A DNA stretch of 64,000 nt, taken from contig CANQSR010000011.1 of the NCBI GenBank assembly GCA_947626575.1, positions 944-64,943 of the forward strand, in the 5' to 3' direction. Below, in pieces: positions 14,290 through 64,000 of the stretch. This DNA is from an uncultured Clostridia bacterium. Lineage in GTDB: Bacteria > Bacillota > Clostridia > Christensenellales > Borkfalkiaceae. A program made the translations under genes and the position numbers. The notes beneath the pieces are model-generated. The model did no database searches. It saw nothing but the letters and a program-made list of their open reading frames with translations, and was not told the DNA's origin. How positions within the stretch are numbered: position 1 is the first letter of the stretch; the number at the start of each line of letters is the position of its first letter.

Positions 14290-14771
14290 TTTTTTTCTAA
14301 TGGGAAGGGGGCAAGGCTTCCCCCCTTCGGGGCGGGTTACGACCTATCATGGACAGCAAGAGCGCGAAGGCCCCTCATCGCCGCCACTTCGTCATTTCGA
14401 ACCCCGCAGGGGTGAGAAATCTCAAAGGGCGAGATTCCTCGCTCCGCTACTTCGCCTACGGCTCGTGACGCGCTTAGATTACAATAGAAATCTCGCGCGG
14501 ACGGAATGACGCAAGGGGAAGGCTTTACGCAAACCCATTCTAAATTTCATGCGAATAACCAAAATCACAATTTTGGTTTTCGCCCTCAATTTGCGCGTCA
14601 AGCGCTTCTTGTCCGTTGGAACGTATGAGAGGATAACGCATGTTAAGGCGCGGAAGTATATTTCCCTCACGGGAATTTGTTTGGGGTAAGTTGATGCACA
14701 CCCCCCACCCTACCCTCCCCCCTCTGGTAAAATGGGGGAGGCGAGAGGAACACCCAAACAAATTTCGTGAA
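14290..14771. repeat. Mosaic repeat block splitting yidD from yidC
   Basis: It contains M1 carrying an M8 variant (14391-14510, insert at 14449-14501), M3 at 14551-14623, and the TIR-bounded M4 at 14668-14769. Confidence 0.85.
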
Positions 14772-31364: not shown

Positions 31365-32400
31365 TGTGATTTGTTCCCCAAGGGGACAGCGCAAAGGCCT
31401 ACCCCCCACGGGGGGAGGCTCCGCCCGCAGGGCGGTGGTGGGGGGTAGGCTTCCCCCACCTGTCTCGCTGCGCGAGCCACCCGCCCCCACAAGCAGGGGC
31501 GGGTCTCGTCGCCCCTTATAGGGGAGATGTCACGAGCCTGCGAGTGACAGAGGGGTTTTGAACCCCTTTCGGCCCGTTGGGCCACTTTCCCCCAAGGGGA
31601 CAGCAAGAGCGCAAAGGCCTACCTCCCACGGGGGGCGGGACGCGGCTCGTTCGGGCAGGACGCTACTCATGCTCCCCACCCCCTTGGGGAGTCCCCCTCC
31701 CACGGGAGGGGGTAGAAGCGGCCCGTCGCTCGGACGTGGCAAATCAATGGCTCCGTAGACGCCTGGGGGGAGGGCTTCCAATTACTTGCCTTAGCCCGAA
31801 TTGATTTCGGGCGTGGGCGACCAAATTTGCAGAGTCTTGTCTGCTTCTTGTCCGTTGAAACGAACAAGAGGATAATGCAAGTTAAGGCGTTAAAGTATAT
31901 TTCCCTCACGGTTGCGGACTTACGACACCCCTTTGGTCGCGCAAGGACGGCGCGACACTTTCCCCTCAAGGGGACAGCGAGAAAAAAGCAAAACAAATTT
32001 CGTGAATAAAATTTCTTGCGAATAACCAAAATCGCATTTTGGTTTTCGCCCTCAATTTGCGCGTCAAGCGCTTGTTGTTCGTTGGAACGAATGAGAGGAC
32101 CAAGTAAATGAAGGCGGGGAAGTAAATTTCCCTCACGGAAATTTGTTTGGGGTTCGTTGATGCACCCCCTACCTAAATCCTCCCCCCTCAGGTATAAGGG
32201 GGGAGGCGGGGGTACAACCAAACAAATTTCGTGAATAAAATTTCTTGCGAATAACCAAAACCACGCTTTTGGTTTTCGCCCTCAATTTGCGCGTCAAGCG
32301 CTTGTTGTCCGTTGAAACGAACAAGAGGACCAAGTAAATGAAGGCGCGGGCGTTTGTTTCCCTCGTTGGATTTGTTTTCCGCAGGAAAAGAAATCCAACG
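31365..32400. repeat. Mosaic repeat block (about 1 kb)
   Basis: It contains M10 at about 31395-31450, M9 at about 31525-31600, M14 at about 31780-31870, M3 twice (about 32020-32095 and 32253-32325), and M4 at 32134-32233. Confidence 0.85.
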
Positions 32401-32405
32401 AAACC

Positions 32406-33164
32406 TTACATCACGACGATGTTTCTCGCCGTGAATTTATCTTTGAGTTCCTGCGGGAAATTATCGTCCGTGATGAGGACGTCGATATCTTCGAGGCGCG
32501 CGAACGTATATGGCATGATCTTGCCGATCTTGGAGCTATCCAGCATCATATACATGGATTTCGCCTTTCTCCTCGTCATTTTGAGGAGGTCCGCCTCCAC
32601 CTGCGAAGCGCAGGAGAAGCCGTTCTCCGGCGTAAACGCCGAGGCCGAGATGATGGCAAGCTCGAAATTCGTATTGTCAAAGTACGCCTTCGCAACAGGC
32701 GAAGCCGTAGACAAATTGTCCTTCATCACCTGCCCGCCGAGGACGGTTAAGTGTACGTTCTTCTTCTGCGCGATCTCAATGGCCACCGCAAGCCCGTTCG
32801 TGAACACATGGATGTTGATATCGGGCATTTCCTTTGCAAGATATAAAGAAGTCGTGCCGCCGTCCACGAAGAGCGAGGTGTTTTCGTCGATGAGGCGCGC
32901 CGCTTTTTGCGCGATCTTGATCTTTTCGTCGGTATGGATGGCGGTTTTCTTGGTATAAGGCTCGCCCGATACCTTCTGCACTTCCTTCACCGACATCGCG
33001 CCGCCCCTTACGCGGATGATGCGCCCCTCCTGTTCGAGCTGATACAGGTCGCGCCGCAGAGTCATCTGCGAGACGTGGGGGAAATAGTCATCGAGTTGTT
33101 CAAGGGTCAGCCTGCCCCGCTTATCGAGGAGTTCTGCAATTTCTTCTACGCGGTCCCGTTTCAT
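32406..33164 (-). CDS. DeoR-family transcriptional regulator
   Basis: 252 aa with an N-terminal HTH (VSQMTLRRDLYQLEQEG) and a C-terminal DeoR sugar-binding domain (LFVDGGTTSL). It looks lower in GC by eye. Confidence 0.85.
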   Translation of the reverse strand: MKRDRVEEIAELLDKRGRLTLEQLDDYFPHVSQMTLRRDLYQLEQEGRIIRVRGGAMSVKEVQKVSGEPYTKKTAIHTDEKIKIAQKAARLIDENTSLFVDGGTTSLYLAKEMPDINIHVFTNGLAVAIEIAQKKNVHLTVLGGQVMKDNLSTASPVAKAYFDNTNFELAIISASAFTPENGFSCASQVEADLLKMTRRKAKSMYMMLDSSKIGKIMPYTFARLEDIDVLITDDNFPQELKDKFTARNIVVM

Positions 33165-52000: not shown

Positions 52001-52030
52001 GTAAACCGTTGTGAAACGGTTTACTTTTTT
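52001..52030 (+). terminator. Rho-independent terminator of dus
   Basis: GTAAACCGTT-GTGA-AACGGTTTAC, then TTTTTT. Confidence 0.8.
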
Positions 52031-52048
52031 ATTCCGGCATGTTATAAT
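52020..52048 (+). promoter_or_regulatory. Strong promoter-like element 830 nt upstream of gyrB
   Basis: TTTACT-N17-(TGt)TATAAT, immediately after the dus terminator. No ORF lies before gyrB. Confidence 0.55.
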
Positions 52049-52129
52049 GACCCTGTCTCGCGCGCGTGCGCGCTATATAGATTGATATACAGTATAACAC
52101 AATGAACTTGCGCGCGGGCGCGCTATGTG

Positions 52130-52860
52130 AGGGAAAGGTTATTCCCCTCGCTGTCCCGGAAAGGGAAAGTGGGCGCGAGCGGCCGAAAGGGTTTTCACGT
52201 CATTTCGAACCGCAGGGGTGAGAAATCTCAAAGAACGAGATTCCTCACTTCGTTACTTCGTCTTCGGCTCGTGGCGACCTTCGATAATAAATAGATGCCT
52301 CGGTCGTTCGGAATGACGTATTAGGCCGAAAGGGTTTCAAAACCCCTCTGTCACTCGTAAACTCGTGACATCTGTCTCACGCGGGTAGAACCCCGCGTTC
52401 GGTCATCGTTCGCGCTACAAATGCGCTCACTCACCGCAAAACGCCGCCCACAGCACACCGTGCTGATGTGCGAGAAGTGCGTTTTGCGACCTCAAAGGGG
52501 CGACGAGACCTGCCCCTTGCTAAGGGGGCGGGTGGCGCGGCTTTGCCGCGTCAGGTGGGGGTAGGGCTTCCCCAATTATTTGCCTTAGGCGGAATTCACT
52601 TCCGCCGACCGCCCGCACATTCTTTGTTGTCTAAGGGCGTCACGAGCGCAAAGCGCGAAGTAGGGCGACCCAATTTGCAGAGCCCCCTGTCTGCTTGTTG
52701 TCTGCGAGAACATCGCATCGGGACCAAGCCCGTAAAAATAAAAACCAAAATCGAATCACGGAAATTTGTTTTAGGGCGGTTGATATGCACCCCCCACCCC
52801 ACCCTCCCCCCTTTGGTCAAAAGGGGGAGGCAAATAGGAGGCAAAACAAATTTCGTGAAA
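52130..52860. repeat. Mosaic repeat block upstream of gyrB
   Basis: It contains M1::M8 (about 52199-52317, insert at 52255-52308), M9(-) at about 52320-52372, intact M2(-) at 52375-52491, M14 at about 52570-52700, and M4 at 52757-52857. Confidence 0.85.
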
Positions 52861-54908: not shown

Positions 54909-55265
54909 ATGATGAATGAACTTTACAATCCCAAGCTGATACAAAACGCCAAGTCATTGCGCAAAGGAATGACAAAGGAAGAGCGCAAGCTGTGGTATAC
55001 GTTCCTTCGTTATCTTCCCGTCAAATTTGTGCGTCAAAAAGCTCGTGGTTTTTACATCGCGGATTTTTATTGTGCGGAAGCGAGGTTGGCCATAGAATTG
55101 GACGGATCTCAACACTTTGAAGAAGCGGGCGAACGGCGCGACTTAATACGGGATGCCTTTTTTTCGGCACACGGGATTCGCGTTGTGCGATATTCCAACT
55201 ACGATATTGCAATGCACTATGATGTTGTAAAAGCGGATATTTTGAAGCAGTTGGGATTGGATTGA
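54909..55265 (+). CDS. DUF559 (Vsr-like PD-(D/E)xK) endonuclease-domain protein
   Basis: 118 aa with MTKEERKLWYTFLR...FVRQKARGFYIADFYC...LAIELDG. Clearly AT-richer than its neighbours by eye. The start codon and SD lie in the end of an M6 repeat. Confidence 0.8.
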   Translation: MMNELYNPKLIQNAKSLRKGMTKEERKLWYTFLRYLPVKFVRQKARGFYIADFYCAEARLAIELDGSQHFEEAGERRDLIRDAFFSAHGIRVVRYSNYDIAMHYDVVKADILKQLGLD

Positions 55266-55269
55266 CTTC

Positions 55270-56006
55270 TCTGCCGCATAAAGAGAACGCCACCCCCTCA
55301 GACCCGCAAGGGCGCGGGCCAGCTCCCCCTCAAGGGGCAGCCAAGAAGGCCGGCCGCGAAACCCCATTCCCCAATCGCTTGCCTTAGCCCGAATTTACTT
55401 CGGGCGTGGGCGACCCAATTTGCAGAGTCCTGTCTGCTTGTTGTCCGCGAGAACATCTCATCGGAACCAAGTCCGTAAAAATAAAAAGCAAAATCGTCTC
55501 ACGGAAATTTGTTTTGGGGGCGGTTGATGTACACCCCCCACCCTACCCTCCCCCCTTTGGTAAAAAGGGGGAGGCAAATAGGAAGCAAAACAAATTTCGT
55601 GAACACCTTCTCAAATCACTGCGAATAACCAAAACCACGCTTTTGGTTTTCGCCCTCAATTTGCCGGCTTGCGGCCTCTTGTCCGCGAGAACATCTCATC
55701 GGAACCAAGTCTGTAAAAATAAAAAGCAAAATCGTCTCACGGAAATTTGTTTTGGGGGCGGTTGATGTACACCCCCCACCCTACCCTCCCCCCTTTGGTC
55801 AAAAGGGGGAGGCAAATAGGAAGCAAAACAAATTTCGTGAACACCTTCTCAAATCACTGCGAATAACCAAAATCACGCTTTTGGTTTTCGCCCTCAATTT
55901 GCGCGGTGCGCTTGTTGTCCGCGAGAACATCTCATCGGAACCAAGTCCGTAAAAGCAAAACCCACAATCGACCCACGGGCATTTTGTTGCACAACAAAAT
56001 GCCGTG
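55270..56006. repeat. Mosaic repeat block upstream of gyrA, including a 2.3-copy tandem array of period about 237 bp
   Basis: It contains M11 at about 55290-55345, M14 at about 55370-55445, tandem composite units starting at 55443, 55681 and 55917 (with M4 at 55500-55601 and 55738-55839), and a terminal TIR-like hairpin at 55974-56006. Confidence 0.9.
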
Positions 56007-60545: not shown

Positions 60546-60900
60546 ACGCATATTTGCGTCGCAATACTTCGTCATACTGCGTTTTTCTTGGTCACGTACG
60601 GGAAAGTACGCTCCCTGCGAAAAGCCTCGTATTCCTTGTCTTGCTCGCAACTCTGCGTTTATGATGAACTCGGATGAGTTTCGAAAATTTCTATCATTTA
60701 GAAACCTCTTAAAAATAAGGGCATAGAAATTTTCGAGACGATTTGTTCCCTTGGCGCCCCTTTGAGGGGAGCTGCCCCGCGGTCTTGCGGGGCTGAGGGG
60801 TTTCGGAAACCCTTCCCCAAGGGGAAGACCTGCCCCTACTTGTGGGGGCGGGTGGCGCGGCTTTGCCGCGTCAGGTGGGGGTAGGCCTTCACCCCCCCAA
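60546..60900. repeat. Mosaic repeat block between grpE and dnaK
   Basis: It contains M15(+) from 60546, the M12 hairpin at about 60676-60745, then M11-like and M2-flank-like segments. Confidence 0.8.
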
Positions 60901-60945: not shown

Positions 60946-62736
60946 ATGAGTAAGGTAATCGGTATCGACTTAGGAACAACCAATTCGTGCGTGGCGGTGA
61001 TGGAAGGCGGCGAGCCTGTGGTCATCGCGAATGCGGAGGGCAGCCGCACGACCCCTTCCGTCGTCGCGTTCCAAAAGGACGGCTCCCGCGTCGTGGGGCA
61101 GGTCGCAAAGCGTCAGGCGGTCGCCAACCCCGATAAGACCGTCATCTCCATCAAACGCAAGATGGGGTCGGATTATAAAGTGAAGATCGACGAAAAATCC
61201 TATTCTCCGCAGGAGATCTCCGCCATGATCCTCTCCAAACTCAAACAGGACGCGGAGGCCTATCTCGGCGGCAAAGTGACGGACGCCGTCATCACCTGCC
61301 CCGCTTACTTCACCGACGCACAGCGGCAGGCCACCAAGGATGCGGGGAAAATTGCGGGCCTCAACGTGCTTCGTATCATCAACGAACCCACGGCGGCTGC
61401 GCTCTCTTACGGCCTCGATAAGGAGAAGGAAAACAGCAAGGTCATGATCTATGACCTCGGCGGCGGCACCTTCGATGTCTCCATCCTTGAAATCTCCGAC
61501 GGTGTGTTCGAAGTCCTCGCGACCAACGGCAACAATATGCTCGGCGGCGACGATTTCGATAAGCGGCTCATGGATTACATGGTGGATGAATTCAAGAAGA
61601 GCCACGGCGTGGACCTCTCCAAGGACAAGATGGCCATGCAACGCCTCAAAGAGGCGGCGGAGAAGGCCAAGATCGAACTCTCCGGCATGAACCAGACCTC
61701 CGTCTCCCTTCCCTTCATCTCCATGACGGACGCGGGTCCCGCGCACCTCGAACTTGATATCACGCGCCAGAAATTCGAAGCGCTGATTTCCGACCTCATC
61801 GAAAAGACGGCCGAACCCATGCGTCTCGCCATGAAGGACGCCGGCCTCTCCTATAACGACATCGATAAAGTCATCCTCGTGGGCGGCTCGACGCGCGTTC
61901 CCGCCGTCGTTGCCAAGGTCAAAGAGATCACGGGCAAGGAGCCGTTCAAGGGGATCAATCCCGATGAGTGCGTCGCCATCGGCGCGGCTATCCAGGGCGG
62001 CGTTCTGACGGGCGAAGTCAAGGACGTCCTTCTTCTCGACGTCATGCCGCTCTCGCTCGGCATCGAGACGCTCGGCGGCGTGTTTACCCGCCTCATCGAC
62101 CGGAATACGACCATCCCCGTCAAGAAATCGCAGGTATTCTCCACGGCGGCGGATAACCAGACGAGCGTGGAGATCCACATCTTGCAGGGCGAACGCGAGT
62201 TCTGCCGCGATAACAAGACGATGGGCCGCTTCATGCTGACGGGCATTGCGCCCGCGCCCCGCGGCATCCCGCAGATCGAAGTCACATTCGACGTCGATGC
62301 CAACGGCATCGTCCACGTCGAGGCGAAAGACCTCGGCACGGGCAAGTCCACGGATATCACCATCACGTCGTCCACCAACCTCTCGGAGGATGAGATCAAC
62401 AAGGCGGTGAAGGATGCGGAGCAGTACGCCGAAGAGGATAAGAAGCGCAAGGCCAAGGTAGATGCGAAGAACAAGCTCGACGGCCTCATCTTCTCCGTGG
62501 AGCAGACCATCAAGGACAGCGAGGGCAAGCTCTCCGATGAGGACAAGGCGACCTTGCAGTCGGCGGTCGACGAGGCCAAGAAAGACCTCGAAGCGGACGA
62601 CGAGGAGAAGTATAACGCGGCGTTCGAAGAACTTTCGAAGAAGATCCAGCCCGTAATCGCCAAGCTGTACCAGCAGAATGCGGGCGCGCAGGGCGGCGAA
62701 GATCCCAACGCCGGCGGCGACGAATTCCATCAGTAA
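60946..62736 (+). CDS. dnaK: Molecular chaperone DnaK (Hsp70)
   Basis: 596 aa with [23 protein letters not shown] and [13 protein letters not shown]. Confidence 0.97.
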
Positions 62737-62739
62737 AGG

Positions 62740-63330
62740 TTTCGCGCGATTTCTTTTCTGCGAAAATAAATCCGCGCGAGGGAAATGTGCGTTGACGCCT
62801 TAATGGGCTTATCCTCTCATCCGTTCCAGCGGACAAGAAGCGCTTGACGCGCAAATTGAGGGCGAAAACCAAAATTGTGATTTTGGTTATTCGCAGAAAA
62901 TCAGAACGTTCACGAAATTTGTTTGGGCAACCTCATGCCTCCCCCCTTTTACCAGAGGGGGGAGGGTAGGGTAGGGGGTGTACATCAACGAACCCCAAAC
63001 AAATTTCCGTGAGGGAAATGTGCGTTGATGCCTTAACATGCGTTATCCTCTCATACATTCCAACGGACAAGAAGCAGGCAGGGTTCTGCAAATTGGGTCG
63101 CCCACGCCCGAAGTAAATTCGGGCTAAGGCAAGTAATTGGAAGCCCTACCCCCAACGGGGGGGAGGGTGGCACGAGCAACGCGAGTGACGGATGGGGGGT
63201 AAAACTAACTCCGTCCCCCCACCACCGCCCTGCGGGCGGAGCCTCCCCCCCAAGGGGTAGGCCTTCGCGCTTTTCAAGCAAAAAAGTAAAATCGTATCAC
63301 GGAAATTTGTTTTCCAAAACAAATTTCGTG
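62740..63330. repeat. Mosaic repeat block between dnaK and dnaJ
   Basis: It contains M3(-) at about 62815-62890, M4(-) at 62911-63011, M14(-) at about 63060-63140, an M6-like unit at about 63150-63200, M10 at about 63205-63265, and an empty TIR hairpin at 63298-63330. Confidence 0.85.
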
Positions 63331-63339
63331 AGGTAATCT

Positions 63340-64000
63340 ATGGCTGAAAAAAAGAACTATTACGAGATTCTCGGCGTCAAGAAGGACGCTTCCGATGAGG
63401 AGATCAAGGCGGCTTATAAAAAGCTCGTCAAGATGTACCACCCCGATTTGCATCCGAACGATCCGCTCGCCGCGGAAAAGTTCAAGGAGATCAACGAGGC
63501 CAACGAGGTACTCTCCGATAAGCAGAAGCGTGCGGCGTACGATTATGAACAGGAGCATCCGGGCATGGGCGGTCCCGGCGGCATGGGCGGCTTCGGCGGC
63601 TTTGGCGGGTTCGGCGATATCTTCGATTCCATCTTCCAAGGCTTCGGCGGCGGCGCATCCGTGCAGCGCGATACCACGGGCGAGGATATCCGTTATACGA
63701 TGAACATCTCCTTTATGGACGCCGCCAAGGGCTGCCATAAGGAGTTTACTTATATGCGCAACGAGCCGTGCCGCGATTGCCGCGGGACGGGCGCGAAAAA
63801 CGGCACCGCCTTCAAGACGTGCGCAAAGTGCGGCGGGAAGGGGCAGGTACGCTTTACGCAGGAGACCATGTTCGGCAGGACCGTCCGCGTGGGGGCATGT
63901 CCCGATTGCGGCGGCCGCGGCAAGATCGTGACGGATAAATGCCCCGCCTGCAAGGGCAAGGGCTATCTTCGCCGCGAGACGACGGTCTCCTTCGATATCC
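63340..64000 (+). CDS. dnaJ: Molecular chaperone DnaJ (5' part, runs off the window)
   Basis: Not in the ORF track because it is open-ended. Hand translation gives [37 protein letters not shown] (J domain with HPD), a G/F region, and CxxCxGxG zinc-finger repeats ([32 protein letters not shown]). Confidence 0.93.

Follow-up and report, generated by a model that had tools for sequence, protein, structure and literature searches.

Results

Repeats at gyrB, gyrA and dnaK-dnaJ

The window, by which we mean the whole 64,000-nt stretch of DNA analysed here, comes from an uncultured Clostridia bacterium of the Borkfalkiaceae and carries gyrB, gyrA, dnaK and dnaJ, with repeated elements in front of or between these genes. 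A sequence-only reading of the same DNA had picked out six copies of an element of about 100 bp, M4, bounded by inverted repeats, as well as two short hairpins in which the repeats abut with no core between them. The six M4 copies are real and measure 100-102 bp: 14668-14769 (+, with one left-arm mismatch), 32134-32233, 52757-52857 (+), 55500-55601 (+), 55738-55839 (+) and 62911-63011, the last on the minus strand and so inverted relative to the other five. All hold the same core, A. With up to two mismatches allowed, 7 matches to the motif CACGGAAATTTGTTT turn up in the window, where 0.14 would be expected.

The copy at 52757-52857 ends 18 nt before the gyrB ATG (52876), as had been noticed, and is the last module of a mosaic of ~750 nt inserted in the gyrB leader. 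That mosaic begins ~30 nt beyond the ancestral gyrB promoter (TTTACT-17-TGtTATAAT) and a conserved CGCGCGCGTGCGCGC hairpin (together 52020-52075, +), which were located by a promoter scan and by comparison with relatives. The copies at 55500-55601 and 55738-55839 belong to the first and second of two tandem units upstream of the gyrA hairpin, a core-less form (CACGGGCATTTTGTTG CA CAACAAAATGCCGTG) at 55974-56006 (+), 21 nt before the gyrA ATG (56028).

Between dnaK and dnaJ, a core-less variant (CGCGCGGATTTATTTTCGCAGAAAAGAAATCGCGCG) lies at 62743-62778 on the minus strand, 6 nt after the dnaK stop codon (62734-62736), where it scores 46.5 bits against the covariance model R1 described below; its associated module, U, occupies 62779-62910 (-), and a homologous arrangement follows dnaK in the relative G008 (L064). 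The inverted M4 copy at 62911-63011, which R1 finds as a hairpin with a large loop insertion, is the second unit of this two-unit array beginning at the dnaK stop, with its own U at 63012-63140 (-). On the plus strand, an A-rich segment corresponding to the 3' part of U (TTCAAGCAAAAAAGTAAAATCGTAT, 63271-63297) precedes the core-less hairpin CACGGAAATTTGTTTT CC AAAACAAATTTCGTG at 63298-63330, 9 nt before the dnaJ ATG at 63340. The same segment precedes the start-side hairpins at gyrB, gyrA and recA and at C1 11130 and C1 29731/29895. Against R1 the dnaJ hairpin scores 52.9 bits on the plus strand and 39.6 on the minus strand; it folds at -10.7 kcal/mol with a bulged G, and contributes its last base to the Shine-Dalgarno sequence (SD), GAGG, which begins there. 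The two core-less hairpins originally described, those before dnaJ and gyrA, are thus genuine, and the window holds further ones at 62743-62778 and 32364-32401.

A dispersed palindrome with a CAC/GTG foot

The short hairpin, H hereafter, has a CAC/GTG foot, a 5' arm with one extra G, a stem of 11-17 A/T-rich positions that are all perfectly paired, and AA after the stem. The foot is kept and the stem is variable: the foot is CAC(G)/GTG, some variants having CGCG or CGTTGG instead, and a single bulged G follows the CAC foot in 17 of 23 forms. The arms are inverted repeats, as had been said, but not exact ones, and the one extra G of the left arm (CACGG... against ...CGTG) gives the element a direction.

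At least 60 H loci are present in this genome (1.90 Mb, 35 contigs), ~21 of them empty, by a symmetric regular expression run over the whole genome, and ~40 with an insert. The covariance model R1, built from 18 empty hairpins (alignment A1), returns 32 matches in the genome, some loci being matched on both strands. The empty copies alone show at least 12 different stems, every one of them paired or compensated. We accordingly describe H as a dispersed palindromic repeat and the 33-nt hairpin as what looks to be its basic, older form.

Covariation was counted on a second alignment, A2, of 150 model-aligned hairpins from many species, because the plain MAFFT alignment A1 had two right arms out of register. 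In A2, which is fitted to the model, leans towards structure for that reason and contains some reverse-strand duplicates, 98.1% of cells are paired; shuffling lowers this to 80.8%, and sliding the partner gives no more than 61%. Double-sided changes occur at 12 of 15 pairs (355 cells), and only 4 of 2089 cells are G-U, against 40 that are unpaired. In a stem selected only as RNA, G-U is normally the commonest departure from pairing. Scarcity of G-U together with paired changes is what would be expected if the palindrome were maintained at the DNA level, or on both strands, and thus points to H being kept as a strand-symmetric DNA palindrome.

H does not resemble an intrinsic terminator, which combines a G+C-rich stem with a U-tract: its stems are A/T-rich, no T-run or U-tract follows it in either orientation, and the terminator scan did not call it. 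Rfam gave no match at gathering score over the window, where two regions reached chance level only (E 0.16-0.62). A second A/T-rich palindrome family (TCGAAAATTTCTAT ... ATAGAAATTTTCGA) is present at 60676-60740, in the grpE-dnaK spacer, and also at ~13246 of contig C12 of this genome (G000); it can likewise come after a U module.

H closes a longer unit

A conserved module, U, of ~130-190 bp precedes every copy of the exact left arm of M4. It consists of three covarying hairpins and the motifs CAATTTGC, TTGTC and TTTCCCT, arranged as hairpin 1, CAATTTGC, hairpin 2, CTTnTTGTCC, a loop, GAGAGGAyAA, TTAAGGCG and ATTTCCCT, and modules of the same architecture, again with covarying hairpins, occur in other species of the genus. 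Because the sequence flanking M4 is conserved as well, the repeated unit is ~230 bp and not 100 bp long. Units are found singly or in head-to-tail arrays with a period of ~230 bp. One example in the window is an array of three (31776-32406, +), whose U modules are ~90% identical and whose hairpins contain, in order, core B (31906-32004), core A (32134-32233) and nothing (32364-32401), the empty one standing 5 nt from the stop of a convergent gene. Within this array the left arm around core B is 10 nt shorter, and the last hairpin has the foot CGTTGG instead of CACG.

No U lacking a hairpin was found in our search; each true U is followed by an H-type hairpin, so that H is not an independent insert behind U. 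We conclude from this regularity that H is, by all appearances, the terminal and always the last module of a unit, U-H, of 170-230 bp. Only start-side hairpins have before them an A-rich form of U's 3' end (GTAAAAATAAAAAGCAAAATCGnnT). An A-rich single strand followed by a stem resembles endoribonuclease sites in Firmicutes.

Cores nested in the hairpin loop

M4 has arms of 15-17 nt with one bulge and, like a MITE, terminal inverted repeats; the exact left arm is present in 37-39 copies genome-wide. Its interpretation as a self-contained, TIR-bounded element of 100 bp did not survive closer comparison, given the conserved U upstream and the fact that the same arms enclose at least four cores (A, B, C and D) as well as nested forms that are longer, at 204-226 nt. 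Without M4 arms, the core A centre (CACCCCCyACCCTACCCTCCCCCC-loop-GGGGGGAGG) recurs at ~100 loci across the genome and in many unrelated contexts, and the core B/C centre does so at many loci. Some copies have an extra small hairpin nested inside the core (e.g. C9 62595). The longest insert within an H pair in this genome is 226 nt, and none is gene-sized. No direct repeat brackets M4: its left flank is always conserved U, and its right flank begins with AA. These patterns suggest that M4 is H with an independent dispersed module nested in its loop, and that the supposed TIRs are the two arms of a hairpin that serves as a slot, not the ends of a 100-bp transposon.

The G-rich strand of core A carries four G-tracts (GGGGGGAGGGTAGGGTAGGGGG) that form a canonical G-quadruplex motif, present at 62945-62975 of the window and at ~100 other loci, where it overlaps a 9-bp CCTCCCCCC/GGGGGGAGG hairpin.

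Two origins had been offered for the empty hairpins, a landing pad for the core or an excision footprint, the latter meaning that M4 is a mobile TIR element and that short hairpins are what remains after the core or the element leaves. Two empty copies do have exact M4 arms, as a footprint should, the dnaJ hairpin with arms of the B type (GTTTT/AAAAC) and the hairpin at C22 2076 with arms of the A/C type (GTTTG/CAAAC). Joining the arms of M4-B or of M4-A/C, however, does not give the loops observed there (CC and CTTGC), so even these two are unlike the product of a precise core removal. For at least 10 of the other empty variants there is no full version, and empty forms are found genus-wide where the M4 arm sequence is missing. 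Moreover, the cores are independent modules with ~100 copies elsewhere, and what lies to the left of M4 is a conserved repeat and not target DNA. We regard excision as a very unlikely origin of the short hairpins. The independence of the cores and the genus-wide presence of empty H instead favour the landing pad, and that half of the earlier proposal is supported, with the hairpin as the basic form and the core as a later occupant of its loop. The other half, that the hairpin is ancestral to the 5'-UTRs in which it stands, is not, as the leaders of relatives indicate below.

Position at gene edges

We curated the locus inventory by hand. It contains 60 loci, 23 followed by another unit and 37 terminal in their array. 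Sixteen of the 37 terminal hairpins lie 4-33 nt before a co-oriented start codon, mostly with the SD in between, and the genes concerned include gyrB, gyrA, dnaJ, recA, uvrB, adk, rbgA and ppx. Another 14, including the one at dnaK, have the stop codon of a convergent gene at a distance of 2-16 nt, and the remaining seven are in neither position. A random intergenic end would fall in the start-side position with a probability of 0.057 and in the stop-side position with a probability of 0.030 (p ~5e-11 and ~2e-12, respectively). The expectation that such hairpins are enriched near start codons beyond the window is thus borne out genome-wide, and a stem stands directly before the SD not only at gyrB, gyrA and dnaJ but at no fewer than 13 more genes, far above chance. 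The U side never adjoins a gene, the nearest being at least 234 nt away. In four other species, too, it is the hairpin that stands close to genes: 19 of 38 H lie 2-9 nt from a convergent stop, 4-5 precede an SD and ATG, and six more are parted from a stop by a short duplicate of their own 3' end. This closeness to genes may come in part from very short ancestral spacers, since an insertion that spares both the gene and its SD in such a spacer must abut both.

Duplicates of this kind were noticed at nine gene-side junctions (C1 88335, C5 4430 and C5 5932 of G000; L052, L056, L065, L068, L070 and L072). There a second copy of the last 8-11 nt of the hairpin (e.g. ATTTCGTGAAC) follows after 1-6 nt and adjoins the stop codon or the SD; these copies may trace the addition of units. 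Two genes of G000, recA (C7 70318-71502) and ppx (C5 226-1893), are bracketed at both ends, with a forward U-H at the start and an inverted U-M4 at the stop, when ~0.16 such genes would be expected by chance. A map of gene-adjoining modules based on repeated 14-mers was set aside as too noisy, half of the repeated 14-mers being in called genes, and is of qualitative use only.

A hairpin just ahead of at least 16 starts, gyrB, gyrA, dnaJ, recA, uvrB and adk among them, could be a dedicated RNA element, selected as a 5'-UTR control of translation or transcription through SD occlusion, as a thermometer or as a terminator. The A-rich single-stranded stretch found before start-side copies only would fit such a role, as would the hairpin of some kind that often lies between dnaK and dnaJ in relatives. 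In the predicted folds of the dnaJ, gyrA and gyrB leaders, however, the SD is unpaired, and occlusion of the ribosome-binding site was not seen. Termination is equally at odds with the missing U-tract and the negative terminator scan, equally many copies follow stop codons in inverted orientation, and G-U pairs are nearly absent, which is unusual for an RNA-only stem. Nor is the association with particular genes kept across the genus: H is at gyrA in 3 of 21 genomes and at dnaJ in 2 of 21. We consider selection of H as a dedicated RNA control unlikely.

Leaders in relatives and the ancestral state

In ~15 of 20 relatives the gyrB leader consists of a TTTACT/TTTACA-17-TATAAT promoter, a CGCGCGyrCGCGCG hairpin, ~35 A/T-rich bases and the SD. 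The present genome retains the promoter and the CGCGCG hairpin but has ~750 nt of mosaic between them and the SD. Most relatives thus have a different hairpin in this leader, gyrA directly follows gyrB in 7 of the 20, and H is dispersed, adjoining convergent stops (at least 14) about as often as starts (at least 16), all of which speaks against H as an ancestral 5'-UTR element. In G002 and in G012 (Ca. Gallimonas merdigallinarum), the right half of an H adjoins the gyrB SD, and a full empty H, in each genome's own variant, precedes gyrA. The dnaK-dnaJ spacer of most relatives is 60-120 nt long with a terminator-like hairpin, and that of G036 has an H-like hairpin. In this genome the spacer is 603 nt long (62737-63339), consists wholly of repeat units and is without the T-run hairpin of relatives; no terminator-like site was called on its plus strand.

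The sigma-70 scan found no other promoter-like sequence between 52020-52075 and the gyrB SD, and none inside U or just before H. By hand inspection, the TAAAAT/CAAAAT sequences before H have no matching -35. The conserved gyrB promoter and the compact gyrB-gyrA and dnaK-dnaJ arrangements of relatives mean that the DNA of these units must be transcribed if the genes are to be expressed. As judged from these comparisons, the units are therefore shown to lie inside leaders and operon spacers, and H would be carried in the mRNA.

The alternating purine-pyrimidine palindrome CGCGCGyrCGCGCG, at 52058-52075 of the window, lies a few bases past the gyrB -10 in ~15 of 20 species (L202-L221). It could be a supercoiling-sensitive or Z-DNA-prone control element.

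Copies of H before both gyrase genes raise the question of whether a chromosomal protein binds it as a cruciform or palindrome, in the way that gyrase binds REP/BIME sequences, its position at gyrB and gyrA then serving supercoiling feedback. H is a strand-symmetric palindrome with a conserved foot and bulge, and several proteins reportedly bind to REP/BIME sequences (PMC2817692, PMC3333891). Yet the stem sequence is free to vary, leaving only the foot and the shape to be read, H stands before or after many unrelated genes, and the ancestral control region of gyrB is a different, GC-rich palindrome that is still present. Such a protein site strikes us as highly improbable.

Taxonomic range

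Of the 61 genomes sampled from the genus (Ca. Gallimonas and its allies), R1 detects H in 54, at up to ~60 copies each. It found no H in the 120 genomes sampled to represent 85 further genera of the order, among which four genomes only are from the same family. An exact pattern scan found carriers among MAGs from chicken, rabbit, mouse and human gut, labelled Ca. Gallimonas, Ca. Coproplasma, Ca. Borkfalkia avistercoris, Borkfalkiaceae or "Christensenellaceae". Within the genomes sampled, H is a lineage-specific repeat that seems confined to one group of gut Clostridia. An exact look-up of DnaK returned two other contigs only, 99.98-99.99% identical to the window, and our literature search turned up no publication that deals with repeats of Gallimonas or Borkfalkiaceae.

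In its exact form, the M4 arm is species-specific, with 37 copies here and 0-1 in 30 relatives. M4-A with different arms of its own occurs in another species (L140), which indicates that the composite predates the present species and that the arms track the local hairpin population.

Candidate enzymes

For a Y1_Tnp/RAYT transposase (PF01797) no match was found in this 97%-complete genome; only 15 of the 61 genomes sampled from the genus have the domain, and the H-rich G001, G002, G012 and G043 do not. We therefore rejected RAYT/IS200 as the mobiliser. Searches of this genome for TnpB and IS110 genes also found none. Five tyrosine recombinases are present. So are four DUF559 genes, at least three of them beside repeat mosaics, and a DUF559 nuclease was rejected as well because its copy number does not follow H abundance across the 61 genomes: G005, G057 and G043 have 44-60 H and no DUF559, whereas G033 has four DUF559 and no H. 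In no fewer than six species of the genus, gyrA has a gene of this family, with its Vsr-like nuclease fold, just in front of it (54912-55265 of the window; G006 C101, G011 C3, G014 C164, G032 C14 and G033 C98). The orientation of H shows no replication-strand bias (9 of 21 by GC skew and 22 of 54 by gene orientation).

We tentatively raise the possibility, about which we remain doubtful, that H is the recognition hairpin of an undescribed mobile system, in which a hairpin-specific enzyme other than RAYT, TnpB or IS110 places U-H in a polar manner at gene edges. The recognised features would be the CAC/GTG foot, the one extrahelical G and an otherwise free stem. The same or a related activity would drop tiny hairpin modules into the loops without target duplication, and correction within the hairpin would keep the arms paired.

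Discussion

The repeats described here have much in common with several known families. REP and BIME sequences (PMC1525189, PMC3333891, PMC2817692, PMC3116915) are, like H, short palindromes outside genes that reach high copy numbers, keep their foot and vary their stem by compensated changes. They combine into mosaics with further motifs and are found behind stop codons and within operons, where they are transcribed; the at least 60 loci of H in 1.9 Mb are in keeping with a high-copy short palindrome of this kind. By contrast, this genome and most H-rich relatives have no RAYT, the foot has CAC/GTG and an extrahelical G where REP has GTAG, and the stem is A/T-rich where that of REP is G/C-rich. 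BIMEs are built from alternating inverted pairs of REPs with short linkers between them; H units run head to tail with a long polar partner, U. REP loops are landing sites for insertion sequences such as IS1397, ISKpn1 and ISPpu9/10 (PMC1525189, PMC12288879), whereas the loops of H hold tiny non-coding modules.

The Correia elements of Neisseria (CREE/NEMIS) are closer to M4 in size and outline, being 100-155 bp long, bounded by inverted repeats, known in full and short forms, often directly next to genes and, in the case of CREE, co-transcribed with them. CREE arms pair as an RNA hairpin that RNase III cuts or is blocked from cutting, which alters how the gene next to it is expressed (PMC2649163). 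A TA target is duplicated by CREE, whose ends can give rise to promoters, whereas we found neither a target duplication nor a sigma-70-like promoter for M4; the arms of CREE are 26 bp long against 15-17 bp, and M4 is part of a larger unit.

Among Gram-positive genomes, the BOX, RUP and SPRITE repeats of the pneumococcus are modular and intergenic, with variable sub-modules and stable hairpins, and are co-transcribed (PMC3049150). U-H is likewise a modular intergenic repeat in a Gram-positive genome. The modules of BOX, however, are serial (A-Bn-C) and not nested in a loop as in M4, sequences and lineage differ, and RUP is an IS630-derived MITE with target duplication, unlike M4. Integron attC sites are imperfect palindromes with a variable centre in which extrahelical bases of one arm give strand identity, all of which recalls H, but H is without R''/R' core sites (RYYYAAC/GTTRRRY), cassette ORFs or an integrase context. 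The PATEs derived from IS200/IS605 have sub-terminal hairpins that a Y1 TnpA moves, and a strand bias relative to replication; here there is no Y1_Tnp and no strand bias. With neither a RAYT nor alternating orientation nor a target duplication, and with no parent IS among the Y1, TnpB and IS110 families searched, the H family appears to work like REP/BIME, Correia and BOX repeats while lacking what defines each of them.

Taken together, these observations make it probable, in our judgement, that H is a basic, lineage-specific palindromic repeat which ends the unit U-H, that M4 is H with a nested module, and that the repeat sits at gene edges and is kept as a palindrome at the level of DNA. The changes in the stem that remain paired and avoid G-U would reflect the formation of a hairpin or cruciform in DNA, recognised by its shape, with the CAC/GTG foot and the one extrahelical G as the features read. 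The H end, and never the U end, is turned to the gene, leaving the SD free at start codons. Once in the mRNA, H would most likely serve as an end-protecting stem or as the boundary of a processed region, and with such a stem essential genes could withstand structured repeats that are hundreds of bases long.

Intergenic DNA makes up roughly one sixth of this small genome. Repeat mosaic accounts for much of it and is present inside the leaders and operon spacers of essential genes such as gyrB, gyrA, dnaK-dnaJ and recA. H, as a polar terminal hairpin and a slot, gives a concrete anatomy to the building of such mosaics and suggests how genes may be shielded from them. The family is a clean marker for the genus and a likely cause of assembly breaks in these MAGs, and a repeat system without its usual RAYT partner may lead to a new hairpin-acting enzyme. 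If an undescribed mobile system of that kind does exist, it would be a self-nesting repeat system limited to one genus of gut Clostridia, whose terminal hairpin would by now effectively form the structure at the 5' or 3' end of many housekeeping mRNAs.
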